In this document: positions 1,290 through 45,110 of the stretch, piece by piece
Layout: the number at the start of each line of letters is the position of its first letter
How positions within the stretch are numbered: the stretch's first letter is position 1
Assembly: GCA_035363115.1 (NCBI GenBank)
Contig: DAOSEM010000002.1
Location: 269,088-333,087 of the forward strand
Reading direction: 5' to 3'
From: Syntrophales bacterium
GTDB taxonomy: Bacteria > Desulfobacterota > Syntrophia > Syntrophales > PHBD01
Length of the DNA stretch: 64,000 bases
Program-made: the position numbers and the translations under genes
The notes under the pieces: model-generated
The model's database searches: none
Told to the model about the DNA's origin: nothing
The model's input: only the letters and a program-made list of their open reading frames with translations

Positions 1290-1564
1290 CGATGGTTCTC
1301 CTCTCTGTTCCGTATTTTGACTGGCCGGGGAAGCGGATCAAACAGGAACCGGTCATCCACTAACGGAATTTGCCGGGATGGTCAAGGTTTGAAAAAGCGC
1401 GGAGAAGGCCCTTTTTTCAGAGTTGACAATATCTTGCCGATTGGTTACCGATAAGCGCTATATTAAACATAAGGGTTGTTGTGCAAGGGACCTTTCGGCA
1501 TTGCATGTTCGTGTCCTGGCAGCCGGCCCATATCAATAAAATCTTGCGGAGGATCTGGAAAGCC

Positions 1565-4422: not shown

Positions 4423-4499
<77 letters not shown>

Positions 4500-6008: not shown

Positions 6009-7091
6009 ATGAACCCGTTTGACGACTTCTATCGCGGCCGCCGGGTCCTGGTGACGGGCCATACGGGCTTCAAGGGCTCCTGGCTCGCGCTGTGGCTCCG
6101 GAAGCTCGGGGCCGAGGTCACCGGCTTCGCCCTGCCGCCGGCGACGGAGCCCTCCCACTTTGCCATCCTGGACCTGGAGAAGCGGATCCGCCACCGGGAG
6201 GGAGACATCCGCGATCTCGAAGCCGTGCGGAACGCCTTCCGGGAGGCGGAGCCGGAAGTCGTCTTCCACCTGGCGGCCCAGGCCATCGTCCGGACTTCCT
6301 ACGACCATCCCAAGGAGACCTTCGACGTCAACGTCGGGGGCACCGTCAACGTCCTGGAGGCCATAAGAAGCGCGCCCTCCGTCCGTGCCGCCGTCGTCGT
6401 GACGTCCGACAAGTGCTACGAGAACCGCGAATGGGTCTGGGGCTACCGGGAAGAGGACCCCCTGGGCGGCCATGACCCCTACAGTGCCAGCAAGGGCGCC
6501 GCGGAGATCGTCTGCGGGGCCTACGGTCGATCGTATTTCAATCCCGCCGGCCGCGGACCGCACCCGGGATTCGCCACGGCTCGGGCCGGGAATGTCATCG
6601 GGGGAGGGGACTGGGCAGCGGACCGCCTCATCCCGGACTGTGTCCGGGCCCTTGCGGCGGGAAAGGCCGTCGTCATCCGGAATCCCGGGGCCACCCGCCC
6701 CTGGCAGCACGTCCTGGAGCCGCTCTCGGGATACCTTCTGCTGGCTCGGCGCCTGGCGGAAGACTCCGTTCGCTTCTCCGGCGCCTGGAACTTCGGACCC
6801 ACCGACGGCTCGGCCATGCCGGTCCGCGAACTGGCGGCCCGCTTCGTTGCCCGTTGGCCGGAGGGCAGGCTCCGGGTGGGAAGGCAGGGAGGGAACGCGC
6901 CTCACGAGGCCCACGCGCTGGCCCTCTGCACCGACAAGGCGCGGAAGATTCTCGGCTGGTGGCCCGTCCTCTCCGCCGGGGAGGCCGTCGACTGGACGGC
7001 AGCCTGGTATCGCGCCTGGCAGGAGGGGAAGGAAAACCTCCGGACCCTCTCGCTCTGCCAGATCCGGCGATACGAAAAATCCTCGACATGA
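6009..7091 (+). CDS. rfbG: CDP-glucose 4,6-dehydratase
   Basis: 360 aa. N-terminus MNPFDDFYRGRRVLVTGHTGFKGSWLALWL is typical of RfbG/DdhB extended SDRs; YSASK catalytic motif (DPYSASKGAAE). Confidence 0.9.
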   Translation: MNPFDDFYRGRRVLVTGHTGFKGSWLALWLRKLGAEVTGFALPPATEPSHFAILDLEKRIRHREGDIRDLEAVRNAFREAEPEVVFHLAAQAIVRTSYDHPKETFDVNVGGTVNVLEAIRSAPSVRAAVVVTSDKCYENREWVWGYREEDPLGGHDPYSASKGAAEIVCGAYGRSYFNPAGRGPHPGFATARAGNVIGGGDWAADRLIPDCVRALAAGKAVVIRNPGATRPWQHVLEPLSGYLLLARRLAEDSVRFSGAWNFGPTDGSAMPVRELAARFVARWPEGRLRVGRQGGNAPHEAHALALCTDKARKILGWWPVLSAGEAVDWTAAWYRAWQEGKENLRTLSLCQIRRYEKSST

Positions 7092-7258
7092 CAGGGTTTT
7101 GATCGTCTGCGTGACGTCCGTCACATTCTTTGATCATGGAATGTGCGCATGAGACAGTCCCGGCGCACCGGATCGGGGATGGAAAGCAGGCCTGAGATCG
7201 TGTATGGTTTCGGCGGGATAAAAGATCGCACCCGGTTTCCGGATGCCGGAGGGAGAGG

Positions 7259-8056
7259 ATGCCCCGGAACATGAGAGGAAAGAAGATGCCGGCCGTCGTG
7301 ATCCTCTGCGGCGGGATGGGGACGAGGCTGGCGGAGCAGACGGAGGTTCGGCCGAAGCCGATGGTGGAGATCGGTGGACGGCCCATGCTCTGGCACATCA
7401 TGAAGCACTATGCCCGGTATGGATGCCGGGAATTCTACCTGGCCCTGGGCTACAAGGGCGAGTACATCAAGCGCTATTTCCTGGAATTCCACACCCTGAA
7501 CCGCGACTTCACGGTCAATCTAGGAGACGGACGCATCGGCGTGCTGGATTGCGCCAACGGGGAGGACTGGACGGTTCACCTCGTGGACACGGGCCTGGAG
7601 ACCATGACGGGGGGGCGCCTGAAGCGCATCGCGCCGCTCCTGCCGAGGGGACGGTTCTTCATGACCTACGGGGACGGCGTGGGCGACGTGGACCTGGATA
7701 AGCTCCTGGCCTTTCACCGTACCCGAAAGGGGCTCGTGACGCTGACCGCCGTGAGGCCGCCCGCCCGCTTCGGTGCCCTGGACTTCGACGGCGACCGCAT
7801 CGTCCGATTCAAGGAAAAATCCGTTGTCCGGGAGGGATGGATCAACGGCGGATTCTTCGTCGTCGAACCAACCGCCCTGGACTGTATCGAGCGGGACGTC
7901 ATGTGGGAGCACGACCCCATGGAGCGGCTCGCCGCGGAAGGCCGGGTGTACGCGTACCGCCATGAGGGCTTCTGGCAGTGCATGGACACGCTGCGTGAAC
8001 TCAAGTACCTGGAATCCCTCTGGGAAAGCGGAAATCCGCCCTGGAAGACATGGTGA
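7259..8056 (+). CDS. rfbF: Glucose-1-phosphate cytidylyltransferase
   Basis: The VVILCGGMGTRLAEQTEVRPKPMVEIGGRPMLWHIMKHY signature of RfbF/DdhA. The start is uncertain: 7259, 7271 and 7286 are all ATG, and both 7259 and 7286 have SD-like purine runs. Confidence 0.88.
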   Translation: MPRNMRGKKMPAVVILCGGMGTRLAEQTEVRPKPMVEIGGRPMLWHIMKHYARYGCREFYLALGYKGEYIKRYFLEFHTLNRDFTVNLGDGRIGVLDCANGEDWTVHLVDTGLETMTGGRLKRIAPLLPRGRFFMTYGDGVGDVDLDKLLAFHRTRKGLVTLTAVRPPARFGALDFDGDRIVRFKEKSVVREGWINGGFFVVEPTALDCIERDVMWEHDPMERLAAEGRVYAYRHEGFWQCMDTLRELKYLESLWESGNPPWKTW

Positions 8057-9189
8057 ACGTGCAGCAGAAGGCATCGGAACGGGTTATGCGGACGGCCGCC
8101 GTGACCGGGAATCGCAGGCGAGGCGGGATGGCCGCCGGGAACCCCCTGGCGGAGGATCTGGACCACGTCCTGGAGCGGACCCGGGACCTCTGGGAAGAAC
8201 TGCGGGGCGGCCGGATCTTCATCACCGGCGGGACGGGATTTTTCGGTTGCTGGCTCCTGGAGAGCCTTCTGTGGGCCAACCGGGAACTGGGGCTGAAGGC
8301 GAGGGCCGTGGTCCTGACCCGCGACCCGGGACGATTCGCGAAAAAGGCGCCACACCTGGCGGGAGACCCGGCGGTCCGGCTGCTCACCGGGGACATGGGA
8401 CGCTTCCGGTTCCCGCGGGGGCCTTTTACCCACCTGATTCATGCCGCCGTTTACCAGGAACCGGAAGGCGGGAAAATCCGGCCCCGGCGGATGGCGGACG
8501 AAATGATCCGGGCGACAAACCGTGTCCTCGATTTCTGCATGGAGGCGGGCGTCCGGAAAATGCTCCTCGTGAGCACCGGCGCCGTATACGGGCCGCCGCC
8601 CGCGGGAATGGACCGGGTTCCGGAGGATTTTACGGGCTCCAGGGATCCCGCCTCGGGGGAAGATGCCTATCATCATGTACGGCGGATCATGGAGACGCTG
8701 ACGGTTCTCCGGGCGGAGGAATGCGGTTTCGAGGCCAAGGTTGCCCGCTGCTTTTCCTTTATCGGGCCGTATCTCCCGCTGGACGGACGCTTTGCCGCGG
8801 GAGATTTCATCCGGGATGCCCTGGCCGGCCGCACGGTTGTCGTCAAGGGAGACGGAAAGGCCGTCCGGTCCTACCTGTACGCGGCCGATCTTGCCGTCTG
8901 GCTGTGGACGATCCTGTTCCGGGGGGTATCCGGCAGGCCGTATAATGTCGGATCCGAGAGGGCGGTCACGATTCGGCAGATTGCCCGGGCGGTCTCCCGG
9001 CAACACGCGCCTCCGCTGAAGGTGACGGTCCTGGGGAAAGAAACGCGGGGTGTCGCGCCGGGCCGGTATGTCCCGGACACATCGAAGGCGAGCTCGGAGC
9101 TTGGATTGGGGCAGGAGATCAACCTTCACAGCGCCATCGGAAAGACGATGCTGTGGAATCGAATTACAAACCAGCAAACGGAGAAATGA
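8050..9189 (+). CDS. NAD(P)-dependent epimerase/dehydratase-family protein (extended SDR), candidate sugar 4-keto or branch-chain reductase
   Basis: Rossmann motif RIFITGGTGFFGCWL. At the expected YxxxK position the sequence reads AYHHVRRIME (Arg instead of Lys), so it may be an atypical SDR. ATG 8050 overlaps the rfbF stop (ATGGTGA); alternative starts are 8086 and 8125. Confidence 0.75.
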   Translation: MVNVQQKASERVMRTAAVTGNRRRGGMAAGNPLAEDLDHVLERTRDLWEELRGGRIFITGGTGFFGCWLLESLLWANRELGLKARAVVLTRDPGRFAKKAPHLAGDPAVRLLTGDMGRFRFPRGPFTHLIHAAVYQEPEGGKIRPRRMADEMIRATNRVLDFCMEAGVRKMLLVSTGAVYGPPPAGMDRVPEDFTGSRDPASGEDAYHHVRRIMETLTVLRAEECGFEAKVARCFSFIGPYLPLDGRFAAGDFIRDALAGRTVVVKGDGKAVRSYLYAADLAVWLWTILFRGVSGRPYNVGSERAVTIRQIARAVSRQHAPPLKVTVLGKETRGVAPGRYVPDTSKASSELGLGQEINLHSAIGKTMLWNRITNQQTEK

Positions 9190-9190
9190 C

Positions 9191-10057
9191 ATGGCGGAAG
9201 TGAGAATCGGAAACGCCCTGGTCGGGGATGGCCATCCCTGCTACATCATCGCGGAGATCGGGATCAACCACAACGGGGATATCGAGATCGCGAAGAAGCT
9301 GATCGACCTGGCCGTCGTGGCGGGATGCAGCGCAGTGAAGTTCCAGAAGCGCACCGTGGACGTCGTCTATTCCGCGGAAGAACTCAATAAGCCCCGGGAA
9401 AGCCCTTTTGGTGATACCAATGGTGATCTGAAGTACGGCCTGGAGTTCGAGAAGCCCGAATACGATGTCATCGACCGGTACTGCCGGGAAAAGAAGATCC
9501 CCTGGTTTGCCTCCTGCTGGGACGAGGGGTCTGTCGATTTCATCGACCGGTACGACGTTCCCTGCTTCAAGATCGCCTCCGCCTCGCTGACGGACGACAG
9601 CCTCCTCCGGCATTACCGGAGCAAAGGGCGGCCCCTCATCATCTCCACGGGGATGAGCACCCTGGAGCAGGTCGATCACGCCGTCGAAGTCCTCGGGAAG
9701 AAGGACCTCGTCATCCTGCACTCCTGCAGCACCTACCCGGCGGATTATTCGGAGCTGAACCTGAAGGTGATTCCTTTCTTCCGCGAACGGTACACGATTC
9801 CCGTCGGCTATTCGGGCCACGAGACGGGCCTTGCCTCGTCCGTGGCGGCATTCGCCATGGGGGCCTGCGCCGTCGAGAGGCACATCACCCTGGAGCGGGC
9901 CATGTGGGGATCGGACCATGCCGCGTCTCTTGGAACCAGCGGCGTTATCCGCCTTGTCCGGGACATCCGGCTCGTGGAAATCTCCATGGGCGACGGCGTC
10001 AAGCGCATTGCCGAGCGGGAAGTCCCGATCATGAAGAAGCTGAGGCGCAAGGGCTGA
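9191..10057 (+). CDS. NeuB-family (sialic-acid-synthase-like) PEP-condensing enzyme, TIM-barrel only with no C-terminal SAF domain
   Basis: MAEVRIGNALVGDGHPCYIIAEIGINHNGDIEIAKKLID is the NeuB N-terminal signature. It is 288 aa, against about 340-350 aa as I recall for NeuB/PseI/LegI, which carry a SAF domain. ATG 9191 lies 1 nt after the upstream stop; the longer track ORF (9050) overlaps the upstream gene. Confidence 0.8.
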   Translation: MAEVRIGNALVGDGHPCYIIAEIGINHNGDIEIAKKLIDLAVVAGCSAVKFQKRTVDVVYSAEELNKPRESPFGDTNGDLKYGLEFEKPEYDVIDRYCREKKIPWFASCWDEGSVDFIDRYDVPCFKIASASLTDDSLLRHYRSKGRPLIISTGMSTLEQVDHAVEVLGKKDLVILHSCSTYPADYSELNLKVIPFFRERYTIPVGYSGHETGLASSVAAFAMGACAVERHITLERAMWGSDHAASLGTSGVIRLVRDIRLVEISMGDGVKRIAEREVPIMKKLRRKG

Positions 10058-10058
10058 C

Positions 10059-10535
10059 ATGAAGCCGAAGATCAAGGCCATTGCGCTGGACGTGGACGGG
10101 GTGCTGACGGACGGGACTTTCTGCTGGGGTCCCGACGGAGCCGAATACAAGCAGTTTTCCTTCTATGACATCATGGGCGTTTCCCTGGGAACCAGGGCCG
10201 GGCTTATGTTTGCACTGATCTCCGGCGAGAGCGGCGAGCTGATCGATCGCTTCGCATCGAAGATGGGCATCGCCGACGTCTTCAAGGGCTGCAAGGACAA
10301 GGCGGCTGCCCTGCGCTCCTTCGCGGAGAATCGGGGGCTTGATCTTTCCGAGGTCTGCTTCATGGGCGACGACGTGAACGATTTGCCGGCACTGGCCCTG
10401 GCCGGCCTGTCCGCCGCGCCCTCCAGCGCCCATAAGCGTGTCAGGGGAGTGGTGAACCTCGTTACAATCCAGCCTGGAGGCCGGGGGGCGGTCCGGGAGT
10501 TGGTCGACCACGTCCTGGCGGACAGCAGCTCATGA
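10059..10535 (+). CDS. HAD-IIIA, KdsC-family ulosonate-phosphate phosphatase (KDO-8-P / KDN-9-P phosphatase type)
   Basis: 158 aa with no cap domain. Motif I IALDVDGVLTDG and motif IV MGDDVNDLPAL, typical of KdsC and of the Bacteroides KDN-9-P phosphatase. Confidence 0.85.
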   Translation: MKPKIKAIALDVDGVLTDGTFCWGPDGAEYKQFSFYDIMGVSLGTRAGLMFALISGESGELIDRFASKMGIADVFKGCKDKAAALRSFAENRGLDLSEVCFMGDDVNDLPALALAGLSAAPSSAHKRVRGVVNLVTIQPGGRGAVRELVDHVLADSSS

Positions 10536-10566: not shown

Positions 10567-12366
10567 ATGAAGCTTTCCGACTTCGTATTCGAGTTTCTTG
10601 CCGGCGCCGGTGTGCGCCATGTCTTCATGCTGCCCGGAGGCGGCGTGATGCATCTGAACGACTCCTTGGGGCGCTGCCCCGGCATCCGCTATGTGGGCTG
10701 CCTCCACGAACAGGCGTGCGCCGTCGCCGCGGAGGCGTACGCCCGGGTGGCGGACGACCTCGGGGTCGCCCTCGTCACGACCGGCCCGGGGGGGACCAAC
10801 GCGATCACGGGAGTGGCGGCAGCCTGGCAGGATTCGACGCCCTGCCTCTTCATCTCCGGGCAGGTCAAGCGGTCCGACCTGGCCGGCACCTCGGGCGTTC
10901 GGCAGATGGGGGTCCAGGAAATCGACATCGTCTCGCTCGTGAAGCCGATCACGAAATACGCCGTCACCGTCATGGACCCCGCGAAGATCCGCCATCACCT
11001 GGAGAAGGCCCTGCACCTCGCCAAAAGCGGCCGTCCGGGCCCCGTCTGGATCGACGTTCCCCTGGACGTGCAGGCCGCGGATGTGGACCCGGGCATCCTC
11101 GAAGGATTCGATCCCGGGGCGGACGCCAGACCGGAAGGGGAGGGGGAACCGGCGGAGGCAGCGGCCCGGGCCATCGACTGGTTGAACGGATCCGAGCGGC
11201 CCGTGGTCCTTGCCGGCAACGGCATCCGCGTGGCGGGGGCATGTGCCGATTTCCGCAACCTGGTCGGCCTGTTGGGAGTCCCCGTCCTGACCACCCGACT
11301 CGGAGTGGACCTGCTTCCGGCAAACCACGGCCTCTGTTTCGGCATGCCCGGGTCCATCGCGGCGCGGGGCTCCAATTTCACGCTGCAGAACGCCGACTGG
11401 CTCCTTGTCCTGGGGGCCCGCCTGGACATGGCGCTGATTGCCTACGAGCCGAAGCGCCTGGCCCGGGGGGCGCGAAAAATCATGGTCAACCTCGATCCCG
11501 CGGAGATGAGAAAGCTGGGCGGGATCCTTGATCTGGAGGTTTGCACGGATGCGGGACGGTTTATCCGGGAAATGATCCGGCAGGCCGGTTGTGTCGAGCG
11601 CCGGGACCGCTCCGCCTGGTTGGACCGCTGCCGGGATTGGCAGGCACGGTACCCCTTTGTCCAGCCGAAGCACCGGGAGAATGCGGCGGGAATCAGTGTC
11701 TATGCCTTCTCGGAGATCCTCGCGGAGGAATTGACGGGAGAGCACATCGTTCTGCCCGGGAACGCCGGGGTCGCCTGCGAGCTCTTTCTCACCGCCTTCC
11801 GGGTCAAGGAAGGGCAGCGCGTTTTTCACAACAAGGGAACCGGCGCCATGGGCTTTGGTCCCCCCGCCGCCCTCGGGGCCGCCCTAGCCAGTAGCGGGCG
11901 GCACGTCGTCTGCATCGACGGGGACGGGGGGTTCCAGATGAACGCACAGGAACTGGAGACGATCCGGCGGCTGGGCCTTCCCGTCACGTTCTTCGTCATG
12001 AACAACCAGGGATACTCCTCCATCCGGGTTTCGCAGAGCGGCTATTTCGGGCGGTTGACGGGGGCCGACGCCTCCAGCAACCTGACGCTGCCGGACCCGC
12101 TCAAGCTTGCCGGGGCTTACGGACTGAGGGCGGTCCGCATTTCGCATCCGGGGGACCTGAAGGAAAAGATCCGGGAGGTTCTCGCCCTGCCGGGGCCCGT
12201 GGTCTGCGACGTCATGCTGATCCCGGACGAGGTCCGGGAGCCGCGGGTGGCGTCGTACCAGAAACCCGACGGCTCCATGGCGTCCAAGCCGCTGGAGGAC
12301 ATGTGGCCTTTCCTCGATCGGGAGGAGTTCCGGGCCAACATGATCGTGGAGCCCGTCGAGGAGTAG
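10567..12366 (+). CDS. Thiamine-diphosphate-dependent enzyme, acetolactate-synthase large-subunit family (YerE-like candidate)
   Basis: 599 aa. N-terminal Pyr domain (VRHVFMLPGGGVMHLND...TTGPGGTNAITGVAAA) and C-terminal ThDP-binding motif GDGGFQMNAQELET...NN. No small regulatory subunit follows. Confidence 0.85.
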   Translation: MKLSDFVFEFLAGAGVRHVFMLPGGGVMHLNDSLGRCPGIRYVGCLHEQACAVAAEAYARVADDLGVALVTTGPGGTNAITGVAAAWQDSTPCLFISGQVKRSDLAGTSGVRQMGVQEIDIVSLVKPITKYAVTVMDPAKIRHHLEKALHLAKSGRPGPVWIDVPLDVQAADVDPGILEGFDPGADARPEGEGEPAEAAARAIDWLNGSERPVVLAGNGIRVAGACADFRNLVGLLGVPVLTTRLGVDLLPANHGLCFGMPGSIAARGSNFTLQNADWLLVLGARLDMALIAYEPKRLARGARKIMVNLDPAEMRKLGGILDLEVCTDAGRFIREMIRQAGCVERRDRSAWLDRCRDWQARYPFVQPKHRENAAGISVYAFSEILAEELTGEHIVLPGNAGVACELFLTAFRVKEGQRVFHNKGTGAMGFGPPAALGAALASSGRHVVCIDGDGGFQMNAQELETIRRLGLPVTFFVMNNQGYSSIRVSQSGYFGRLTGADASSNLTLPDPLKLAGAYGLRAVRISHPGDLKEKIREVLALPGPVVCDVMLIPDEVREPRVASYQKPDGSMASKPLEDMWPFLDREEFRANMIVEPVEE

Positions 12367-12376
12367 GGAACGGATC

Positions 12377-13438
12377 ATGGAAACCGCGAAGCAGAAGAAG
12401 GAGATCGAGGCCGCCCGGAGGGAGAAACTCCGGAGGGAAAAGCCTCTGGTCTATGAGAAAATCATCCGGCTCGACGAACGCTTCCAGGCTGGAATGGCAA
12501 CGCCGGTGGTGGACATCTGCTACAACCGGGCCTGCAACCTGAAGTGCCGCCATTGCTTCACTACCCGCTTCACGAAGAAGGACCGCTCCCTCTCCCCCCC
12601 GGACATGAAGCGCTTCGCCGACGAGGCCCACGAGATCGGACTGTGCCAGCTCGTCCTCTCCGGCGGAGAGCCCCTGATCCTGAAGGACCTGGAAGAAGTC
12701 ATCGCGGCGCTGCAACCAGACAAGTTCCATTTATCCATGAGCACGAACGGGTATTTCTTGACGCCGGAGATGGCAAGAAACCTCAAAACCTGGGGACTCG
12801 ACAAGGTCAAGATCAGCATCGACGACTTCGACGAACGGATGCACAACGACAATCGCCGGAACGACAACGCATACGAGAAGGCCATGGCCGCCCTGTTCAA
12901 CGCGAGAGACGCGGGTCTCAGCGTCGTCATCCAGACGTGCATCACCCATGAAAACTGCCGGACCGACCGGACCATCCAGATGGCAAAATTCGCCCAGGAG
13001 AACGGGTTTGTGGTGGACGTCATGATCGCCCACGCCGTCGGTGAATGGGAGGGCAGGCACGACATGCTGATCGACGAGGCGGACGCCGCTTACATGCGCG
13101 AGGTTCACAGGCAGTACCCGTCCCTGCACCGCGACACGTTTCCGACCTACGGCATCGACCGGGGCTGCGGGAGCGTCCAGTCCAACCTGCACCTCACCCA
13201 GTACGGCGACATCCTCCCGTGCGGCTTCATCCACATTTCCCTCGGCAGCATTTTCGAGGAGAGCCTCGCCGCCATTCTGGAGAGGGGGATGAGCATCCGG
13301 CACTTCAAAGAGTACAATCCGCTCTGCCTCTCCGGGGAGGACCGGTATTTCATCGAAAAATACATGGCGAAATTCTACGGAAAACCGCTTCCCGTCCACT
13401 GGACCGAGGTCTTCGGGGAGGAGGACTTTGTCCGATGA
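12377..13438 (+). CDS. Radical SAM protein with a C-terminal twitch/SPASM-like Cys region
   Basis: CX3CX2C at residues 53-60 (CNLKCRHC, nt 12533-12556), GGEPL motif (LSGGEPLIL), and later Cys in GCGSVQSNLHLTQYGDILPCGF. No cobalamin-binding domain is evident. Confidence 0.85.
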   Translation: METAKQKKEIEAARREKLRREKPLVYEKIIRLDERFQAGMATPVVDICYNRACNLKCRHCFTTRFTKKDRSLSPPDMKRFADEAHEIGLCQLVLSGGEPLILKDLEEVIAALQPDKFHLSMSTNGYFLTPEMARNLKTWGLDKVKISIDDFDERMHNDNRRNDNAYEKAMAALFNARDAGLSVVIQTCITHENCRTDRTIQMAKFAQENGFVVDVMIAHAVGEWEGRHDMLIDEADAAYMREVHRQYPSLHRDTFPTYGIDRGCGSVQSNLHLTQYGDILPCGFIHISLGSIFEESLAAILERGMSIRHFKEYNPLCLSGEDRYFIEKYMAKFYGKPLPVHWTEVFGEEDFVR

Positions 13439-14460
13439 GCGAGTTCACCATCATTTCCCATGACCGGCAACCGCTCCGCGACCGCCTCCCGCTCAAGAAG
13501 CCCCTCTCCCTGTTCGTCGAGCCGACGAACCTGTGCAACTTCCGCTGCACCCCCTGCGTGCACGGCAGCGAGAACACGCGCAACGACCTGAAACCGCTCC
13601 GGAACATGGAGATGGACCTGTACCGGAAGCTCATCCGCGAACTTGCGGATTGGGAAGGGCCGCCGCTGAAGTTGCTCCGGCTGGCCATGCTGGGCGAGCC
13701 TTTCGTGAATACGGAATTTTGCGAAATGGTACGCCTTGCCAGGGAGGCCCATGTCGCCGAGCGGGTGGACACGTTTTCCAACGGCTCCCTGCTGACGGAG
13801 GAGATCTCGGAGAAGCTGATCGACTGCGGGCTGGACATCATCCGCTTCTCCATTTACGCGTCGGAAAACGGGCGCCATCGGGAGGTGACCCGGTCGAATT
13901 GCACCGTGGAGACCATCCGGGATAACATCCGGCGGTTGCGGGAGCTGCGCGACGCCCGGGGAGCCCGAAAACCGTACATCTTTGTGAAAATGTTCGACAC
14001 GTACGGACCGGAGAACGACACGTTCTTCGGGATGTACCGCGACATCGCCGACGAGGTCGGGCTGGAGAAAGTCCACAACGCCACCCGGTACAGCGGGAAC
14101 GACTTGGTCAGGATGTACTACCACGACAGCGAAAAGGAGAAGCAGGCGAAGCGTGAATATGCGGAAGGGCTGAACAGGGGGCGCATCGCCTGCTCACGCC
14201 CCTTCATGGCCATGGTGATCAACAACATCGGCGACTGCCTCATGTGCACCCACGATCCCGCAAAGGGGACGAAGATCGGCAGCGCCCGCGAAAGCACCCT
14301 CCACGAGTTGTGGAACGGCGAAAACATGTTTCAGTTCCGCAAGATGCTCCTGGAGGGCCGAAAACATGAGAACCGGATCTGCGCCCGCTGCGACTGGTTC
14401 AAGCTGTTCCCGGAAGAGGACAGCGTGGACGGATTCCCCGTGGAGAGACTGCGACCGTGA
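13435..14460 (+). CDS. Radical SAM/SPASM-like protein (paralogue A)
   Basis: The start ATG overlaps the upstream stop (ATGA). CNFRCTPC at residues 34-41 (nt 13534-13557). C-terminal Cys cluster (ACSRPF...GDCLMCTHD...ICARCDW). The 471-aa track ORF is an upstream extension that overlaps the previous gene. Confidence 0.85.
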   Translation: MSEFTIISHDRQPLRDRLPLKKPLSLFVEPTNLCNFRCTPCVHGSENTRNDLKPLRNMEMDLYRKLIRELADWEGPPLKLLRLAMLGEPFVNTEFCEMVRLAREAHVAERVDTFSNGSLLTEEISEKLIDCGLDIIRFSIYASENGRHREVTRSNCTVETIRDNIRRLRELRDARGARKPYIFVKMFDTYGPENDTFFGMYRDIADEVGLEKVHNATRYSGNDLVRMYYHDSEKEKQAKREYAEGLNRGRIACSRPFMAMVINNIGDCLMCTHDPAKGTKIGSARESTLHELWNGENMFQFRKMLLEGRKHENRICARCDWFKLFPEEDSVDGFPVERLRP

Positions 14461-15509
14461 TCCGGTACACCAGCCTGAAAAACACGGACCGGCAGAACCT
14501 CAGGGAGGTCATGCCGCTGCAAAAGCCCTTCACGGTGCTCATCGAGCCGTCGAGCCTGTGCAACTTCAAGTGCATCCAGTGCTTTCAGAGCATCAAGGCG
14601 GAATCCTACTTCACCCGCACCCGGGGGAACATGCCGATGGCGCGCTTCCGGCGGGTCATGGAGCAGCTCAAGGCCTGGCCGGGGCCGAAGCTGAAGGTGC
14701 TCAAGCTGAGCCTTTACGGCGAGCCGCTCGTCAACCGGGATTTCTGCGAGATGCTGCGAATGGCCAGGGAAGCGGACGTTGCGGAGAGGATGGAGACCAC
14801 CACCAACGCCTCCCTCCTGACCCGGGAGATCGCCGAAAAATGGGTGGAGCACCAGATGGACTATGCGCGAGTGTCCATCTACGCCTCCGAGCAGGGGAGA
14901 CACAAGGCCATCACCGGTTCGAGCCTGGACATCCGCACCATCCACGAAAACCTGAGGGTTCTCCAGGAAATCAAACGGCGCGAGGGATCGGAGCGGCCCT
15001 TTGTGAGCTGCAAGATGCTGGACGCCTACGGCGACGAGAACGAACGGTTCTTCGAGATGTACCGGGACGTGGCCGACGAGGTGTACCTGGACAAGCCGCA
15101 CTGCTGGATCAAGGTGGAGGGAGCCGACTTCATCCGGGACTACTACCGCGAGGACGCACAGACCGTCCTGGTGGACCTCCGGAGGAACCGGACCCGGCGG
15201 GTCGCCTGTCCCATGGCGTTCACGACGATGGCAATCCGAAGCAACGGAGATGTCTCCCCCTGCTGCGTGGATTTCATCGGCGGCACGAACCTGGGCCGTG
15301 TGGACGACCATAGCCTGCAGGAGATCTGGCATTCCGAGCCCTGGTACGAGTTCCAGAAGATGCAGCTCATGGGCCGCAAACAGGAGAACGAATCCTGCGC
15401 CCGCTGCGATTTTTACCTCAGCGATCACTACACCCTGGACAACATCGACGGCTTCGACGTGGGAAAGCTGCTGGGGGCGGGGGAGTGCAAGACGGGAGGT
15501 GGTTCGTGA
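14457..15509 (+). CDS. Radical SAM/SPASM-like protein (paralogue B, tandem duplicate of 13435-14460)
   Basis: GTG start overlapping the upstream stop (GTGA). CNFKCIQC at residues 35-42 (nt 14559-14582). Collinear with paralogue A along its whole length at roughly 40-45 % identity by eye (shared blocks LYGEPLVNRDFCEM, RVSIYASEQGRH, FFEMYRDVADEV, CARCDF). Confidence 0.85.
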   Translation: MIRYTSLKNTDRQNLREVMPLQKPFTVLIEPSSLCNFKCIQCFQSIKAESYFTRTRGNMPMARFRRVMEQLKAWPGPKLKVLKLSLYGEPLVNRDFCEMLRMAREADVAERMETTTNASLLTREIAEKWVEHQMDYARVSIYASEQGRHKAITGSSLDIRTIHENLRVLQEIKRREGSERPFVSCKMLDAYGDENERFFEMYRDVADEVYLDKPHCWIKVEGADFIRDYYREDAQTVLVDLRRNRTRRVACPMAFTTMAIRSNGDVSPCCVDFIGGTNLGRVDDHSLQEIWHSEPWYEFQKMQLMGRKQENESCARCDFYLSDHYTLDNIDGFDVGKLLGAGECKTGGGS

Positions 15510-16618
15510 AGCTGATGGACCAGATTCGGGACGTCCGGCACGCCGAGAAGGACATCTTCGACACAATCAGGGCCTCGGGTGATCCGGTTGTGCTCTGGGG
15601 GGCCGGCGAGATCGCCTGGTGTGTCTGGACCTATCTGCGCCAGAACGGGATCGATCCGGTGTGTTTCTGTGACAATGATCCGGCCAAGCAGGGAACGAAG
15701 CATCTCGGGCTCCCCGTGTACGGTTACGACGGACTGAAGGAGCGCTTTGCACGGGAGGGTCGCCGCTACCACATTGTGGTGGCGACGGGCATTCAGTACC
15801 GGGCCCCGATCTTCGCGCAGCTGGCCGCTGCCGGGGAGAGGAACCCCATCTGGTACATCAAGGGCTTCGAGGTCTGCGGGGAAAAGATTGATTATCCTTA
15901 TGTCCGGGAGCACGCGGAGCAGTTCGAAGAGGCGTACGCATCCCTGGCGGACGACGTATCGCGGAATGTGTTCGTGCACGTCCTCATCGCCAAACTGTCC
16001 GGCGACTTCGACCTCTATCGGAGGATCATGTCCCCGTGCGAGTATTTTGACGAGGACGTGATTCGCCTGGCCGAAGACGAGGTGTACCTGGACGTCGGCG
16101 CATACCGGGGCAGGGCGATCATTGAATTCGCGAGGCGGACAAGGGGAACATACGACGGGATCATCGCGTTCGAGCCGGACAAAAGGACGCTGGACATGCT
16201 CCGGAGAACCGTCGAGGAGCACGGCATCCGGAAGGTGGAACTGCACAACAAGGGGGCCTGGGACAGGCATGCGTTCCTGAGTTTCCACGATGGGCGTGAG
16301 GGAGGATCGCGCATCCTGGAGCCTTCCGCCGTTGAAATCCCGGCAAACTCCATCGAGGTGGACGCCATCGACAACGTGCTCGACGGCCGCCGGGCGACCT
16401 ACATTTCCATGGATATCGAGGGGGCGGAGCACAACGCCATTCTGGGCGCCGAGCGGACCATCCGGACGTGGAGACCCAAAATGGCGGTTTCCGTCTATCA
16501 CAAGCGGGAGGACCTCTTCGACCTCCTGCTCCTGATCAAGTCCTTCGACCCGCAGTACCGGTTTCACATGAGGCACTACACGGAAAACCAGACCGAAACG
16601 GTGCTGTATGCGGTGTAG
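15506..16618 (+). CDS. FkbM-family SAM-dependent methyltransferase with an N-terminal Methyltransf_14-like (NDP-sugar-binding Rossmann) module
   Basis: FkbM core: VYLDVGAYRGRAIIEFA...IIAFEPDKRTLDML...SMDIEGAEHNAILGAE. N-terminal module: VVLWGAGEIAWCVWTYLRQNGIDPVCFCDNDPAKQGTKHLGLPVYGYD. GTG 15506 overlaps the upstream stop (GTGA) just after GGGAGG; an ATG at 15515 is the alternative start. Confidence 0.8.
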   Translation: MKLMDQIRDVRHAEKDIFDTIRASGDPVVLWGAGEIAWCVWTYLRQNGIDPVCFCDNDPAKQGTKHLGLPVYGYDGLKERFAREGRRYHIVVATGIQYRAPIFAQLAAAGERNPIWYIKGFEVCGEKIDYPYVREHAEQFEEAYASLADDVSRNVFVHVLIAKLSGDFDLYRRIMSPCEYFDEDVIRLAEDEVYLDVGAYRGRAIIEFARRTRGTYDGIIAFEPDKRTLDMLRRTVEEHGIRKVELHNKGAWDRHAFLSFHDGREGGSRILEPSAVEIPANSIEVDAIDNVLDGRRATYISMDIEGAEHNAILGAERTIRTWRPKMAVSVYHKREDLFDLLLLIKSFDPQYRFHMRHYTENQTETVLYAV

Positions 16619-16633
16619 GGCGGGCGGGCACGC

Positions 16634-17818
16634 ATGATCAAGAACGAGCCGATGAGGCCCTGTCCCGTATGCGGGAACGGGGTCGGCGCCGAGCGCCTCC
16701 ACACGCAGGAATTCATTCTGCCGGAGAACCACCCCCTGCCCGCGGCGTATGACGTCGTCGCCTGTGGCCGGTGCGGGTTCGTGTATGCGGACACGCCCGC
16801 CGGACAGGCTGCCTATGACCGGTACTATGCGGACATGTCGCGATACGACATGAATTATACCTGCCCCGAGAGCTCCCTCTACGCCGACCGGGCCGCGTGG
16901 ATCGATTCGTTCATCGGCAACCGGGCGGACAGCGTCATCGACATCGGCTGCGGAAATGGCCTGCTGCTTCTGGAACTGCGGAAACGCGGGCTGTCGGATC
17001 TGACGGGCCTGGATCCGTCCGAGGCATGCATCTCGGCGCTCCGGGAAAAGGGCATCCCGGGGATCGCCGGCAGCATCTTCTCCGTTTCCACGGACAGGAC
17101 GTTCGACTGCGCCGTGCTTTCCGGGGTGCTGGAGCACATCTGCGACGTCGGCGGCGTCATGGAGACGGCCAAGAGGCTTCTGAAGCACGGCGGCCGGCTG
17201 TTTGTCTGCGTTCCCGACGCCTCGCGGTACCGGTTTTTCGATGCTGTTCCCTTCGATTACTTCAACATAGAGCACATCAATCACTTCGAGGAGACGTCGC
17301 TGTTCAACCTCGGACTTCAGCACGGCTTTCATGTGAACGCATTTCTCAAGACGACCATCACGCTGGCCCGGACGACGCAGCCGATGATCTTCTGCGCATA
17401 TGAGAACACGGGGCAACCCGCCGGTGATATGCTTGCATATGCGCGAAATGCCGTCGTTCAGTATATCGTGCAGACGAAGAAAATGGCGGGTGTCAATCGG
17501 GTTCTTGACGAACTGGAGGAAACGGGAGAAGAAGTGATCGTCTGGGGGGCGGGGAATTACACGAGCCGTCTCCTGGCCGGATCGAGTCTGGGCCGATGCA
17601 ACATCGTCCTGATCGTGGACAACGATCCGCACAAGCAGGGCACACGGATTGGAGGAAGAACGGTCCATTCCCCCCGGGCAATCCGCGACGAGGGGAAGGA
17701 CTGTACCATTCTGATCGCTGCGGCGGTTTTCGGCGACGAGATCGCGGCGGAGATCCGGAATATGGGATTGCAGAACAAAATCATATTCTTGGGCAATTCA
17801 GGAGAACGTTCCGCATGA
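16634..17818 (+). CDS. NDP-hexose C-methyltransferase-like protein (TcaB9/TylC3 architecture: Zn-ribbon + class I SAM MTase + Methyltransf_14 C-terminal domain)
   Basis: Four-Cys ribbon CPVCGNG...(x31)...CGRCGF; SAM motif VIDIGCGNGLLLLEL; C-terminal VIVWGAGNYTSRLLAGSSLGRCNIVLIVDNDPHKQGTRIGGRTVHSP. This matches my recollection of the Pfam Methyltransf_13/_14 arrangement. Confidence 0.75.
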   Translation: MIKNEPMRPCPVCGNGVGAERLHTQEFILPENHPLPAAYDVVACGRCGFVYADTPAGQAAYDRYYADMSRYDMNYTCPESSLYADRAAWIDSFIGNRADSVIDIGCGNGLLLLELRKRGLSDLTGLDPSEACISALREKGIPGIAGSIFSVSTDRTFDCAVLSGVLEHICDVGGVMETAKRLLKHGGRLFVCVPDASRYRFFDAVPFDYFNIEHINHFEETSLFNLGLQHGFHVNAFLKTTITLARTTQPMIFCAYENTGQPAGDMLAYARNAVVQYIVQTKKMAGVNRVLDELEETGEEVIVWGAGNYTSRLLAGSSLGRCNIVLIVDNDPHKQGTRIGGRTVHSPRAIRDEGKDCTILIAAAVFGDEIAAEIRNMGLQNKIIFLGNSGERSA

Positions 17819-18762
17819 GCCTGGGCCGGAAGACCATCAGCGTTGTTGCGGGCTGTTTCAACGAGGAGGGAAACCTGCAGCCGTTTTATGACCGGCTGAT
17901 GAAGGTTTTCGAACAGCTGCCCGGGTATGATTACGAGATCATCGTGGCGGACAACTGCTCGACCGACGGCAGCCAGGAGATCCTGCGCCGCCTGGCCTCC
18001 ACCGACAGGAAGTTCAAGGTGATTCTGAACGCGAACAACTTCGGGCAGATCCGTTCCCCGTTCCACGCCCTTCTCCAGGCGAAGGGAGATGCCGTCGTCG
18101 CCATCACCTCGGACCTGCAGAATCCTCCGGAGCTGATTCCGGAATTCGTGAAGAAGTGGGAGGAGGGGCATGAAGTCGTCATCGCGGTGAAGCGGAAAAC
18201 GGCCGAGAACGCCGTCGTCTCGGTGGTCCGGAATTTCTATTATTACCTCCTGTCCCGCTTTTCCGAATCCGACCACATCATCCGCGGCTTCACGGGCTTC
18301 GGCCTCTACGACCGCAAGTTCATGGACGCCCTCGCGCTGTACAAGAATTCATATCCCTATTTTCGCGGACTGGTCGGGGAGATCGGTTTCCGCCGTGCCA
18401 CGGTGCCGTTTGACCAACCGCCGCGCCGGCATGGGCGGTCCAAGAATAATTTCTTCACCCTCTACGATGTTGCAATGACCGGCTTCGTCAACCATTCCCG
18501 GCTTCCCCTGCGCCTCGCAGCCATGACCGGGTTTGGCGTGGCCATCCTGAGCCTCCTGGTCGCCTTCGGCTATTTCGTCTACAAACTCGTTTTCTGGGAC
18601 AGCTTTTCCGTCGGGATCGCGCCCCTGGTCATCGGCCTGTTCTTCTTCGCCTCCGTCCAGCTCTTCTTCATCGGCATCGTGGGCGAGTACATCGGCGCCA
18701 TCCACACCCAGGTGCTTAAGCGCCCGCTGGTCATCGAGAAGGAGCGCATCAACTTTGACTGA
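17815..18762 (+). CDS. GT2 polyprenyl-phosphate glycosyltransferase (GtrB/ArnC/DPM1-like)
   Basis: The start ATG overlaps the upstream stop (ATGA). ISVVAGCFNEEGNL...IIVADNCSTDGS...VVAITSDLQNPPE (DxD-type), followed by two C-terminal TM helices (AAMTGFGVAILSLLVAFGYFVY, LVIGLFFFASVQLFFIGIVGEY). Confidence 0.85.
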   Translation: MSLGRKTISVVAGCFNEEGNLQPFYDRLMKVFEQLPGYDYEIIVADNCSTDGSQEILRRLASTDRKFKVILNANNFGQIRSPFHALLQAKGDAVVAITSDLQNPPELIPEFVKKWEEGHEVVIAVKRKTAENAVVSVVRNFYYYLLSRFSESDHIIRGFTGFGLYDRKFMDALALYKNSYPYFRGLVGEIGFRRATVPFDQPPRRHGRSKNNFFTLYDVAMTGFVNHSRLPLRLAAMTGFGVAILSLLVAFGYFVYKLVFWDSFSVGIAPLVIGLFFFASVQLFFIGIVGEYIGAIHTQVLKRPLVIEKERINFD

Positions 18763-18810: not shown

Positions 18811-19287
18811 ATGCCGCACCGTCTTTTCCCGACGGACCCCCGGTTTGCCATGATCCACGAACGCTTCGCACGCCACGGAGTGAAGATCCGGTTTGTCCTC
18901 GTCGGCGTCTGGAACACCTTCTTCGGCTACGGTGTGTACGTCGCCCTGGACTGGCTCTTCGAACGGCTCTTTGCGAGCCGTGCCGCCGCCTACATGTCGG
19001 CCGCGGTCCTGTCGAACATCCTGGCCATCCTGAACGCCTATATCTTCCATAAATTCATAACGTTCCGTTCGGAAGCCCGCGGATGGGCCATGGTGCCGGA
19101 GTTATTCCGGTTTTTCTCGACCTACCTGGTGAGCATTGTCGTGGGGCTTGTGTCGCTTCCCGTCTTCGTGGAGGTGTTCAGGATCGACCCCAAAATCGCG
19201 GGCGCCCTGGTCATGCCGGTGACGGTACTGGTGAGCTGGCTCGGCCACTCCCGGTTTTCTTTCCGGAACGAAAAAACAAAGACATAG
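18811..19287 (+). CDS. GtrA-family membrane protein (polyprenyl-P-sugar translocation)
   Basis: VKIRFVLVGVWNTFFGYGVYVALDWLF, a four-TM profile and a size of 145-158 aa are all typical of GtrA. The start may be 18850. Confidence 0.8.
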   Translation: MPHRLFPTDPRFAMIHERFARHGVKIRFVLVGVWNTFFGYGVYVALDWLFERLFASRAAAYMSAAVLSNILAILNAYIFHKFITFRSEARGWAMVPELFRFFSTYLVSIVVGLVSLPVFVEVFRIDPKIAGALVMPVTVLVSWLGHSRFSFRNEKTKT

Positions 19288-19324: not shown

Positions 19325-20296
19325 ATGAAGATGGAGGATTGCCACAATCACGGCCAAATCGGGCACACCATGAACAACGCCATGCGGTCCATGATTCAAT
19401 GCCTTGCCGGGCTTTCTTTCCTTCTTTTCCTGGTCCTGGTGCCGGAAATGCTGCATGCCGGCGTGCCCTCCATGAAACTGGATATGAGGGCGGCACCGTC
19501 CCCGGGAAGGCTGGTTGCCGTTTCCACCGCGACGAACAACGGCGGGGAAACCGCATACAATGTCTCCATCATGTCATCCCTCGCCGGCGATACCCGTCGC
19601 TCGGATCCCCTCGGGGACGTCCACGCAGGCAAGCGCCGCAGCCAGCGGGTGGAGTTCAGCCTGGAGGGCCTCAAGCCGGGACGATACATCCTTGCCGCCC
19701 GGCTGGATTACCATGAGCAGAACGGTATGCCCCACCGGATCCATTCCTTCCGTGCCTTTCGAGTGAGCGGGAGCGAGCCGGAAATGCAAAACGCACAGGA
19801 AACCCGGGAGACGGCGGTAGCCTCCGGGATACCGGCCATGGCGGAAATGCCGGGACTGTCCGTAGCGCTGGAAATACCGGCGGCGCGGTGGACACTCTTC
19901 GGCAATGCCGGCACGAAAATCGTGCTGATCGTGAAAAACAGGATGGATACACCCATCCGGCCCGTGTTTTCCATCCATCTTCCCGGCGGCGTAACGGCAG
20001 ACCGGACGGAGCTGCAACTGGAGATGGGACCGGGCGAAGAACGCCGCGAGGAGGTGAGGCTCGACGCCAAACGATCCGTCCGGGGCGGGCATCCGGTATC
20101 CGTGCTGGTGAGTTGCGAGACGGAAGAGGAATACGACAGTCGCCTGCTCAGGACAACGCTCTCCGTTGAGGAGAACTCCATGTCTCTCCCGGCCATGGCA
20201 ATGGTCGCGATTATCCTGACGATCGCCCTTGCGGCTTTCGTGCTGATCGCCTTTCGACGCTCGTCCACAGGGCATACGGGAGAACCGGGCACCTGA
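19325..20296 (+). CDS. Hypothetical exported protein with a C-terminal membrane anchor and two beta-sandwich-like (CARDB/DUF11-like) halves
   Basis: Signal-like segment MRSMIQCLAGLSFLLFLVLVPEMLHA. Two similar segments (LVAVSTATNNGGETAYNVSI... and IVLIVKNRMDTPIRPVFSIHL...). C-terminal TM LPAMAMVAIILTIALAAFVLIAF followed by RR. The start is uncertain (19325, 19370 or 19382). No family was recognised with confidence. Confidence 0.55.
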   Translation: MKMEDCHNHGQIGHTMNNAMRSMIQCLAGLSFLLFLVLVPEMLHAGVPSMKLDMRAAPSPGRLVAVSTATNNGGETAYNVSIMSSLAGDTRRSDPLGDVHAGKRRSQRVEFSLEGLKPGRYILAARLDYHEQNGMPHRIHSFRAFRVSGSEPEMQNAQETRETAVASGIPAMAEMPGLSVALEIPAARWTLFGNAGTKIVLIVKNRMDTPIRPVFSIHLPGGVTADRTELQLEMGPGEERREEVRLDAKRSVRGGHPVSVLVSCETEEEYDSRLLRTTLSVEENSMSLPAMAMVAIILTIALAAFVLIAFRRSSTGHTGEPGT

Positions 20297-44880: not shown

Positions 44881-45110
44881 GAACACCTTCCTCCTTAGTT
44901 AGAATTTACACTCCTCCCCCTGTCAGGCGCTGCCGTCAGTTTGCGGAAGACGGAGTCTCCCGGCAACCGCGCCGGAAGTTCAATTTCTCCCGCTGCTACA
45001 CTGCATTCACTTGTATAAGGGGTGCCGTCCCGTAGCATATCGGTTTTGAAAAATCAACATGCGAATAAGGGGTGAAGCAGAATGACCTGATTCAAACAGC
45101 AATCAGCGCC

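Follow-up and report, generated by a model that had tools for sequence, protein, structure and literature searches.

The 64,000-nucleotide stretch of Syntrophales bacterium DNA analysed here (GenBank assembly GCA_035363115.1, contig DAOSEM010000002.1, positions 269,088 to 333,087; hereafter the window) carries three consecutive genes on its forward strand for radical S-adenosylmethionine (SAM) enzymes: rSAM1 (12377-13438, 353 residues), rSAM2 (13435-14460, 341 residues) and rSAM3 (14457-15509, 350 residues, GTG start). These three are probably sugar-tailoring enzymes within a horizontally spread cassette of about 15 kb (approximately 4.6-19.3 kb of the window) for an acyl-branched higher-carbon sugar of a surface glycan. 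A sugar, and not a peptide, is the likely substrate because the trio sits inside a shared sugar-building cassette. An acyl-branched higher-carbon sugar is likely because genes for a NeuB-like synthase, for a KdsC-like phosphatase and for a thiamine diphosphate (ThDP)-dependent carboligase resembling YerE and JanthE lie in the operon.

The three proteins are assigned to the radical SAM superfamily by their CX3CX2C motif and by Pfam. The motif occurs as CNLKCRHC in rSAM1 (12533-12556), CNFRCTPC in rSAM2 (13534-13557) and CNFKCIQC in rSAM3 (14559-14582) and is invariant in 120, 112 and 120 homologues, respectively. The Radical_SAM domain PF04055 was matched at 95.9, 48.8 and 43.0 bits in the same order (gathering threshold 29.5), which bears out the three consecutive radical SAM reading frames reported in a preliminary description of the window. 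The SPASM domain PF13186 was found in rSAM2 (41.5 bits) and rSAM3 (57.5 bits) against a threshold of 21.5, and the score of rSAM1, 21.2 bits, lies slightly below it. Chaining of the genes by ATGA and GTGA overlaps, also described earlier, was found again at the junctions, and the FkbM-family gene downstream likewise begins in a GTGA overlap, at 15506. Pfam gave no B12-binding domain (PF02310) in rSAM1, rSAM2 or rSAM3, as had been stated; they are thus not cobalamin-dependent radical SAM methylases.

Related loci were collected from a scan of one genome per species (38 loci), and five were added via look-ups of named proteins. Co-occurrence was counted in the 40 loci with an rSAM3 orthologue, many of which lie on truncated contigs, and gaps and small open reading frames (ORFs) were analysed in 44 related loci. 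The preliminary description had treated the trio as something singular, which did not hold: rSAM1 accompanies rSAM3 in 37 of the 40 loci, whereas rSAM2 does so in 14. The pair of rSAM1 and rSAM3 thus forms the conserved radical SAM unit, with rSAM2 as an accessory. The same 40 loci contain an FkbM-type methyltransferase in 33 cases, the ThDP enzyme in 32, the NeuB-like synthase in 28, a short-chain dehydrogenase/reductase (SDR) in 26, a family 2 glycosyltransferase (GT2) in 22, RfbF, RfbG and RfbH in 20, 19 and 22, respectively, and a GtrA protein in 14. Gene order is kept across loci and the packing is close (median gap 53 nt). When ORFs of at least 90 residues from 38 loci were clustered, no further gene family, such as an E3 reductase or a GT-C transferase, was common to more than five loci; ORF calling in the high-GC DNA gave spurious antisense ORFs as well.

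Homologues of each of the three radical SAM proteins number in the hundreds and are 60-80% identical across phyla. Among the hosts, mostly anaerobes, are Syntrophales, Geobacter, Victivallales/Lentisphaeria, Nitrospirota, Elusimicrobiota, Omnitrophota, Fibrobacterota, Holophagales, Thermoleophilia, Accumulibacter, Bacillota and a Parabacteroides metagenome-assembled genome; among the cultured ones are Syntrophus buswellii, Clostridium chromiireducens and Thiorhodococcus mannitoliphagus. The cassette is thus widespread across phyla, and what is new about it is the lack of any characterisation, not rarity. No paper on such a radical SAM sugar cassette was found in the literature searched, coverage of which was incomplete.

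The settings of the cassette are glycan loci and not peptide natural-product loci, which bears on a reading of the trio as maturases of a ribosomally made, post-translationally modified peptide (RiPP) or of a protein, with the substrate encoded elsewhere or being a neighbouring protein. Most SPASM/twitch enzymes modify peptides, rSAM1 is matched best by SkfB and SuiB in fold, and NCBIfam gave weak partial matches to WgkB, ScmE/F, PqqE and anSME. Even so, this reading is highly improbable and is already largely refuted. There is no space for a peptide gene in the window, where no free small ORF lies between the trio genes, and no small ORF is conserved in the 44 related loci, in line with the earlier argument that a precursor gene is lacking. 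A search of the cassette gaps in these loci for a conserved peptide returned only short matches that proved to be the N-termini of rSAM1 and of neighbouring genes. Pfam gave no RiPP recognition element (RRE) or PqqD domain in the trio proteins, the N-terminal extensions of which are shorter than 50 residues. The neighbourhood is made of sugar genes throughout, and no extra gene family common to more than five loci emerged from the clustering described above.

None of the NCBIfam models listed for rSAM1, rSAM2 and rSAM3 (the best 25 of 71, 38 and 44 families, respectively, passing E = 0.01) reaches its cut-off; the best scores, RiPP and cofactor maturases included, are 112 bits against 500 and 99 against 380. 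The preliminary description had named confident assignment of all three to peptide-modifying or cofactor-maturation subfamilies as the result that would speak against a sugar role, and no such assignment was obtained. Membership of a RiPP maturase family was rejected on the lack of a precursor ORF and of an RRE and on maturase scores far below the cut-offs. Assignment to a curated family was likewise rejected, since the matches to AhbD, NirJ, MoaA, a tungsten cofactor maturase and an N-terminal-twitch family are partial and below threshold. The trio are members of neither the BtrN nor the B12-dependent families, nor of the curated RiPP or cofactor maturase families listed. The AprD4-type model NF033070 (cut-off 500 bits) is not among the best 25 families listed for any of the three; it matched a separate B12-type radical SAM protein in the T. 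mannitoliphagus locus with 68 bits.

It is also very unlikely that the trio are cofactor or metalloenzyme maturases (for a W/Mo cofactor or MoaA-like, or AhbD/NirJ-like haem enzymes) placed here by chance. Such an origin would agree with the top NCBIfam names, which are AhbD, NirJ2 and MoaA for rSAM1 and a tungsten cofactor oxidoreductase maturase for rSAM2 and rSAM3, and with one database entry that names an rSAM2 homologue MoaA. The scores behind these names, however, are 85-112 bits against cut-offs of 380-500 and cover the N-terminal radical SAM core alone. Chance placement is excluded by the fixed synteny in sugar cassettes across many phyla, and no haem, Moco or oxidoreductase partner lies nearby.

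The profile of the rSAM2/rSAM3 family was matched best by BtrN (E = 7e-16) in an alignment spanning the radical SAM core and the twitch domain, and the next matches were anSME, SuiB, MoaA and DesII. An AlphaFold model of rSAM3 (pLDDT 89.7, pTM 0.90) also gave BtrN as the top Foldseek match (E = 1.7e-12, TM-score 0.74 relative to BtrN), with SuiB, anSME and DesII next in rank. The closest solved relatives of rSAM2 and rSAM3, by sequence and by fold, therefore include the sugar enzymes BtrN and DesII, both of which the preliminary description had cited as precedents. The C-terminal cysteines conserved across homologues are C251, C269, C270, C314 and C317 in rSAM3 and C253, C271, C316 and C319 in rSAM2. 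The four ligands of the auxiliary cluster of BtrN align with C251/C269/C314/C317 of rSAM3 and with C253/C271/C316/C319 of rSAM2; C270, a fifth invariant cysteine of rSAM3, directly follows the cluster ligand C269.

The earlier remark that the C-terminal cysteines are of twitch/SPASM style stands in part. Twitch-type cysteines are conserved, four or five in rSAM2 and rSAM3 compared with three in rSAM1 (which has two more in its core). The seven-cysteine SPASM motif CX9-15GX4C...CX2CX5CX3C...C is absent, the homologue alignments of all three proteins being devoid of CX2CX5CX3C; therefore, one auxiliary cluster rather than two is predicted for rSAM2 and rSAM3. With the PF13186 match and the cysteines aligned with the BtrN ligands, these two fit the twitch subgroup, in which rSAM1 would be a borderline case.

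BtrN, the 2-deoxy-scyllo-inosamine dehydrogenase of butirosin biosynthesis (PDB entries 4M7T and 4M7S), shares with rSAM2 and rSAM3 the CX3CX2C motif and has one twitch auxiliary cluster, as is predicted for them; its substrate is a carbohydrate-like carbinol. It differs in its abridged barrel and in its length, 250 residues against about 345 for rSAM2 and rSAM3; its aminoglycoside antibiotic pathway and its substrate are not those of the cassette, and C270 of rSAM3 is additional. The two proteins may be BtrN-like in their working, but they are not members of the BtrN family because the identity is about 17%, the lengths differ by about 100 residues and no aminoglycoside genes lie nearby. DesII, the TDP-4-amino-4,6-dideoxyglucose deaminase/dehydrogenase (PDB entry 8HZV), likewise belongs to the radical SAM enzymes and has a nucleotide-linked deoxysugar as its direct substrate. 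The match of its N-terminal core to rSAM2 and rSAM3 has E values of 1e-4 to 5e-6, and this core is within the top five by fold; DesII has no twitch auxiliary cluster and about 490 residues, and the likeness is limited to the radical SAM core.

With one predicted auxiliary [4Fe-4S] cluster, fully cysteine-ligated, rSAM2 and rSAM3 would use the 5'-deoxyadenosyl radical to take a carbinol hydrogen. The substrate radical would then either give an electron to the auxiliary cluster, the secondary alcohol becoming a ketone, or be quenched again with epimerization. BtrN-like oxidation to a ketone is the best-supported chemistry from the profile and model comparisons. Sugar-acting twitch/SPASM epimerases are established (NeoN and HygY), and the main alternative is that rSAM2 and rSAM3 are epimerases of this type, in which the hydrogen is taken and then returned from the opposite face via a cysteine thiol. 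We regard this as rather unlikely. The invariant C270 immediately behind C269 is a candidate hydrogen donor, an extra C268 three residues before ligand C271 occurs in 60% of the rSAM2 homologues, and the peptide epimerase EpeE is among the fold matches; the best match by both sequence and fold is nevertheless a dehydrogenase, and the position of the extra cysteine differs between rSAM2 and rSAM3.

rSAM2 and rSAM3 share 43% identity over 331 aligned positions (E = 5e-98), in agreement with the collinear paralogues at about 40-45% that had been estimated by eye. The local duplication proposed for them was not upheld. Identity is at least 61% within the rSAM3 orthogroup and at least 46% within that of rSAM2, compared with 31-46% between the two, which indicates old, separate orthogroups and not a recent duplication.

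rSAM1 has a MoaA/SkfB/viperin-like core. By profile it resembles MoaA (4e-18), to which the core is closest, SkfB and BlsE, and like MoaA it has only three invariant C-terminal cysteines (C264, C282 and C317), with C90 and C194 invariant in the core. Its predicted model (pLDDT 91.9) matched SkfB, SuiB, MoaA, PqqE, BlsE and viperins about equally; the twitch enzyme SkfB came out on top, and no specific function follows. The protein scores below every family cut-off, including those of the NCBIfam MoaA models (93-101 bits against 231-325). MoaA, BlsE and viperins, which it resembles in sequence and fold, work on nucleotides or nucleotide sugars, and because this kinship is compatible with them, dehydration and C-C bond formation on a CDP-linked sugar are candidate reactions. 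Residues 1-40 (window 12377-12500) form a conserved, highly charged N-terminal helical extension with E11, R15, L18, E21, K22, P23 and R35 nearly invariant; it is too short for an RRE domain.

The other cassette genes of the window also lie on the forward strand. The first encodes an RfbH/E1-type CDP-6-deoxy-4-keto-glucose 3-dehydrase (4680-6002; NF011936, 642.7 bits against 423; Pfam DegT_DnrJ_EryC1), the ORF being open from 4608 and the start at 4680 uncertain. It is followed by CDP-glucose 4,6-dehydratase (RfbG; 6009-7091; TIGR02622, 485 bits against a cut-off of 278) and glucose-1-phosphate cytidylyltransferase (RfbF; 7259-8056; TIGR02623, 327.6 bits against 300). All three exceed their NCBIfam equivalog cut-offs; the nucleotide-sugar operon setting described earlier is thereby confirmed, and the genes for CDP-4-keto-3,6-dideoxyglucose expected of a YerE-type pathway are present. 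An SDR of the NAD-dependent epimerase/dehydratase family (8125-9189, ORF open from 8050; Pfam Epimerase, 98 bits) is a candidate YerF-like side-chain ketoreductase.

The NeuB-family synthase (9188-10057; Pfam NeuB, 239 bits) is short and has no SAF domain; its best PDB match is 6ncs, a NeuB of 290 residues (2.5e-36), and by family it would condense phosphoenolpyruvate (PEP) with an aldose. It reaches 240 bits against the NeuB cut-off of 400 and 187 against the PseI cut-off of 340. These scores, the lack of a SAF domain and the absence of a CMP-nonulosonate synthetase from the cassette argue that this is not a nonulosonic acid pathway. The sugar-acid phosphate phosphatase of the KdsC/YrbI family (10059-10535) scores 109.5 bits against the TIGR01670 cut-off of 106.95, and 119.6 bits with the KDN-9-P phosphatase model, under the cut-off of the latter. 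The YerE/JanthE-like ThDP-dependent carboligase (10567-12366) has three TPP domains and matches PDB entry 8rph best (9.8e-111), with acetolactate synthases at 1e-79 or worse. Entry 8rph is JanthE, a YerE-like enzyme that joins α-keto acids to ketones (PMC12188165). The likeness to YerE is read from the comparison of JanthE (1e-110) with acetolactate synthase (1e-79).

Downstream of rSAM3 are an FkbM-family methyltransferase (15506-16618, start GTG at 15506 or ATG at 15515; TIGR01444, 72.8 bits against 37.7; PDB entry 2py6, FkbM, 2e-30) and a TcaB9/TylC3-like class I methyltransferase (16634-17818; Methyltransf_23 and Methyltransf_14) with an N-terminal Cys4 site and a C-methyltransferase C-terminal domain, which aligns end to end, weakly (E = 1e-4), with the sugar C-3'-methyltransferase TcaB9. 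A PgfS/ArnC-like GT2 polyprenyl-phosphate glycosyltransferase (17815-18762; Pfam Glycos_transf_2) reaches 170 bits for PgfS and 114 for ArnC in NCBIfam, each below cut-off, and the last gene encodes a GtrA-family membrane protein (18811-19287; Pfam GtrA_DPMS_TM, 69 bits against 26.1). The gaps from the ThDP gene through GtrA are 10, 0, 0, 0, 15, 0 and 48 nt. On the 3' side of the cassette the window continues as an exopolysaccharide (EPS) locus with a priming phosphotransferase, YjbH, a Wzz-like protein and Wza/SLBB export proteins.

Acyl-branched sugars are made by a scheme in which an aldolase supplies a functionalized 2-keto acid, a YerE-like ThDP enzyme decarboxylates it and adds it to C4 of CDP-4-keto-3,6-dideoxy-D-glucose, and a YerF-like reductase reduces the side-chain ketone to give erwiniose, caryophyllose or gastriose (PMC9306805). 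The proteins concerned are YerE/YerF for yersiniose, ErwE/F/I/J for erwiniose, MMAR_2331/2332 for caryophyllose and MygE for gastriose (Steitz et al., 2022; PMC9306805). The cassette shares with these pathways the CDP-4-keto-3,6-dideoxyglucose genes, and it has a putative YerE-like carboligase, a candidate keto-acid supplier and, in the SDR, a candidate NAD(P)H reductase. The supplier differs, being a pyruvate aldolase in the acyl-branched pathways and, in the cassette, apparently the PEP-dependent NeuB-family synthase with the KdsC-like phosphatase: the cassette contains no pyruvate aldolase, and the NeuB-like and KdsC-like genes occupy that position in 28 of the 40 loci. Also added in the cassette are radical SAM genes, two to five in number, and several methyltransferases, and most hosts are anaerobes; no radical SAM gene has been described in any of the published acyl-branched sugar clusters. 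By analogy, the cassette appears to encode the YerE-type acyl-branched sugar pathway in a variant form, in which the module for donor supply is new and radical tailoring is added.

In the pathway that we propose, RfbF, RfbG and RfbH, judged by family membership, would give CDP-4-keto-3,6-dideoxy-D-glucose. The NeuB-like synthase and the KdsC-like phosphatase would convert PEP and an aldose phosphate to a long 3-deoxy-2-ulosonic acid. With modest confidence, the aldose phosphate may be D-glycero-D-manno-heptose 7-phosphate, which would yield a ten-carbon deoxy-ulosonic donor and, from it, a branched sugar of very large size. This substrate is suggested because in some cassettes a GmhA-like (sedoheptulose-7-phosphate isomerase) domain is fused to the KdsC-like phosphatase or encoded separately; it occurs in five loci in total, as a KdsC-like::GmhA-like fusion in two Bacillota cassettes (L039, 3419-4489; L037, 4823-5890) and as a free-standing gene in three others (L007, 2002-2649; L024, ~7209-7709; L018, ~14923-15279). 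We infer, by analogy with the scheme for erwiniose, caryophyllose and gastriose, that the ThDP enzyme decarboxylates the ulosonic acid and attaches the product to C4 of the keto sugar, after which the SDR would reduce the new ketone. The ligated CDP-sugar is placed as the substrate of the radical SAM enzymes because their genes have the ThDP gene on one side and those of the methyltransferases and transferase on the other; rSAM1 and rSAM3 would tailor it, joined here by rSAM2 and the FkbM-type and TcaB9-like methyltransferases. Finally, the sugar would be attached to polyprenyl phosphate and flipped by GT2 and GtrA, for use by the adjoining EPS locus; elsewhere, the target would be flagellin. 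The preliminary description had envisaged a CDP-dideoxyhexose as substrate. The genes for a CDP-3,6-dideoxyhexose are indeed present, but the NeuB-like, KdsC-like and ThDP genes had been overlooked, and with them a larger branched sugar is likelier.

A TcaB9-like methyltransferase was found in 12 of the 14 loci with rSAM2 and in none of the 26 without it (Fisher's exact test, p = 1.6e-8, not corrected for phylogeny); of the two rSAM2 loci that lack it, one is at a contig end and one has a transposase insertion. rSAM2 could make a ketone beside the carbon that is methylated by the TcaB9-like C-methyltransferase. This coupling is a hypothesis, and the C1' side-chain ketone left by the ThDP step could serve equally. 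An extra B12-binding radical SAM gene encoding about 550 residues, absent from the window, is present in six cassettes, all of which contain rSAM2 (L008, 12219-13832; L025, 12173-13780; L031, 6575-8164; L040, 7550-9199; L043, 13228-14865; L044, 12062-13738). It usually lies between the FkbM and TcaB9-like genes, which adjoin each other in the window. The number of radical SAM genes per cassette ranges from two to five, some cassettes reaching four or five.

In two cultured hosts the cassette leads into flagellar genes. The locus of C. chromiireducens (L039) has a full cassette with all three radical SAM genes followed by a tetratricopeptide repeat (TPR) glycosyltransferase and flagellin (14652-16733), and in T. 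mannitoliphagus (L040, 14551-21026) genes for a TPR/GT41-type transferase, flagellin, FlaG and FliD come after the cassette. From their gene content, both loci are taken to be flagellin glycosylation islands. Many Gram-negative loci, the window included, end with GT2 and GtrA, a combination indicating that the sugar is transferred to polyprenyl phosphate and then flipped across the membrane. HddA-like kinase genes occur in the Thiorhodococcus and Accumulibacter variants, with an HddC-like nucleotidyltransferase in Thiorhodococcus as well; HddA-like genes without visible RfbG/RfbH suggest a different acceptor sugar in these variants.

Several observations weigh against the sugar-tailoring reading and against the details of the pathway. 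Apart from the low identity of rSAM2 and rSAM3 to BtrN and their additional 100 or so residues, SuiB, anSME and other peptide-modifying enzymes nearly equal BtrN in fold score. The co-occurrence statistics are uncorrected for shared ancestry, and the GmhA-like domains score under the equivalog cut-off. Some loci have the radical SAM pair with no NeuB or ThDP genes within 10 kb; in S. buswellii DM-2 (L009, 1758-18238) NeuB, ThDP and Rfb genes are all missing within 10 kb of rSAM1 + rSAM3, which have a carbamoyltransferase and four FkbM-family paralogues in tandem ahead of them and, behind them, a C-methyltransferase-like gene and two GT/TPR proteins of about 1000 residues. Thiorhodococcus has the HddA/HddC-like genes and no RfbG/RfbH could be seen there. 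RfbH (E1) normally requires the E3/RfbI reductase, and clustering of ORFs of at least 90 residues from 38 loci revealed no such reductase in the cassette at any locus.

Some of these observations would be accommodated if the radical SAM enzymes acted earlier or elsewhere in the sugar pathway, on the free NeuB-derived ulosonic acid or on the plain CDP-3,6-dideoxyhexose, where they could carry out further deoxygenation, epimerization or an E3-type reducing step for RfbH. This alternative, which we consider unlikely, shares the genomic association with late tailoring and would account for the missing E3 reductase; in Thiorhodococcus the NeuB, ThDP and radical SAM genes are kept and RfbG/RfbH are unseen, which would make the NeuB-derived part the common substrate element. 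Radical SAM enzymes, however, are not known to replace E3, an NADH-flavin-[2Fe-2S] reductase, and S. buswellii retains the pair without NeuB, ThDP or Rfb genes nearby. The gene order (ThDP, rSAM1-rSAM2-rSAM3, methyltransferases, GT2) also suggests late tailoring, that is, action on the ligated CDP-sugar as proposed above.

A further reading is offered as a speculative proposal that is unlikely to be right in full. The cassette sugar would have from 13 to about 15 carbons, with a NeuB-derived deoxy-ulosonic chain on a CDP-3,6-dideoxy-4-ketohexose, and one or more of the radical SAM enzymes, rSAM1 being the most plausible, would carry out a reaction not seen before on nucleotide sugars, for example radical C-C cyclization to a carbocycle or radical deoxygenation of the side chain. 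The product would be a widespread, hitherto unrecognized decoration of flagellin and exopolysaccharide in anaerobes.

To our knowledge, the characterized sugar-modifying radical SAM enzymes almost all belong to the biosynthesis of antibiotics. The present cassette, for what would be ordinary cell-surface and flagellar glycans, has two to five radical SAM enzymes as fixed parts and has spread horizontally among many anaerobic phyla, with Lentisphaerota of gut and rumen, Clostridia and Syntrophia among them. Should the inferred pathway logic be right, the ThDP acyl-branched sugar scheme gains both a new class of donor, the NeuB-type ulosonic acids, and radical tailoring steps, and glycan structures are predicted that nobody has seen. 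Three well-defined orthogroups and the cultured hosts C. chromiireducens, S. buswellii and T. mannitoliphagus are supplied for enzymology.

More distant twitch relatives with 35% identity to rSAM2 and rSAM3 were observed in loci L035 (9083-13560) and L036 (409-3712), in a unit of a methyltransferase, a radical SAM enzyme and an ATP-grasp enzyme, to which L035 adds a DegT aminotransferase; this may be another uncharacterized sugar or amino-sugar tailoring set.

At the 3' end of the cassette in the window, GtrA is followed by an ORF of 323 residues (19325-20296, forward strand) that is hydrophobic at its N- and C-terminal segments and is matched by neither Pfam nor NCBIfam; it is conserved in the closest relative, L001, alone (78%). 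Upstream of the first cassette gene, a tRNA-Pro(GGG) was identified at 4423-4499 on the forward strand (Rfam RF00005, 57.7 bits; ARAGORN). It may mark an island boundary or the integration site of acquired DNA, a role suggested because the cassette proteins are 60-80% identical across phyla. An Rfam scan found two tRNAs only and no riboswitch, and a promoter and terminator scan of 4-21 kb gave counts not above those of shuffled sequence.

Two further features of the window were noted. A molybdopterin enzyme resembling formate dehydrogenase and carrying an Fe-S domain at its N-terminus (1481-4267, forward strand) is split by an in-frame TGA at 2633-2635, the usual position of selenocysteine, with a hairpin starting right behind it (-26.2 kcal/mol, z = -2.06); it is likely to be a selenoprotein, which ORF callers would give as two genes. 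Three paralogues of the acetyl-CoA hydrolase/transferase family lie within 14 kb on the reverse strand (35049-36566, 43528-44886 and 47157-49049), the last with a GNAT acetyltransferase domain fused to it; these genes probably encode CoA-transferases that serve syntrophic metabolism and have no relation to the trio.

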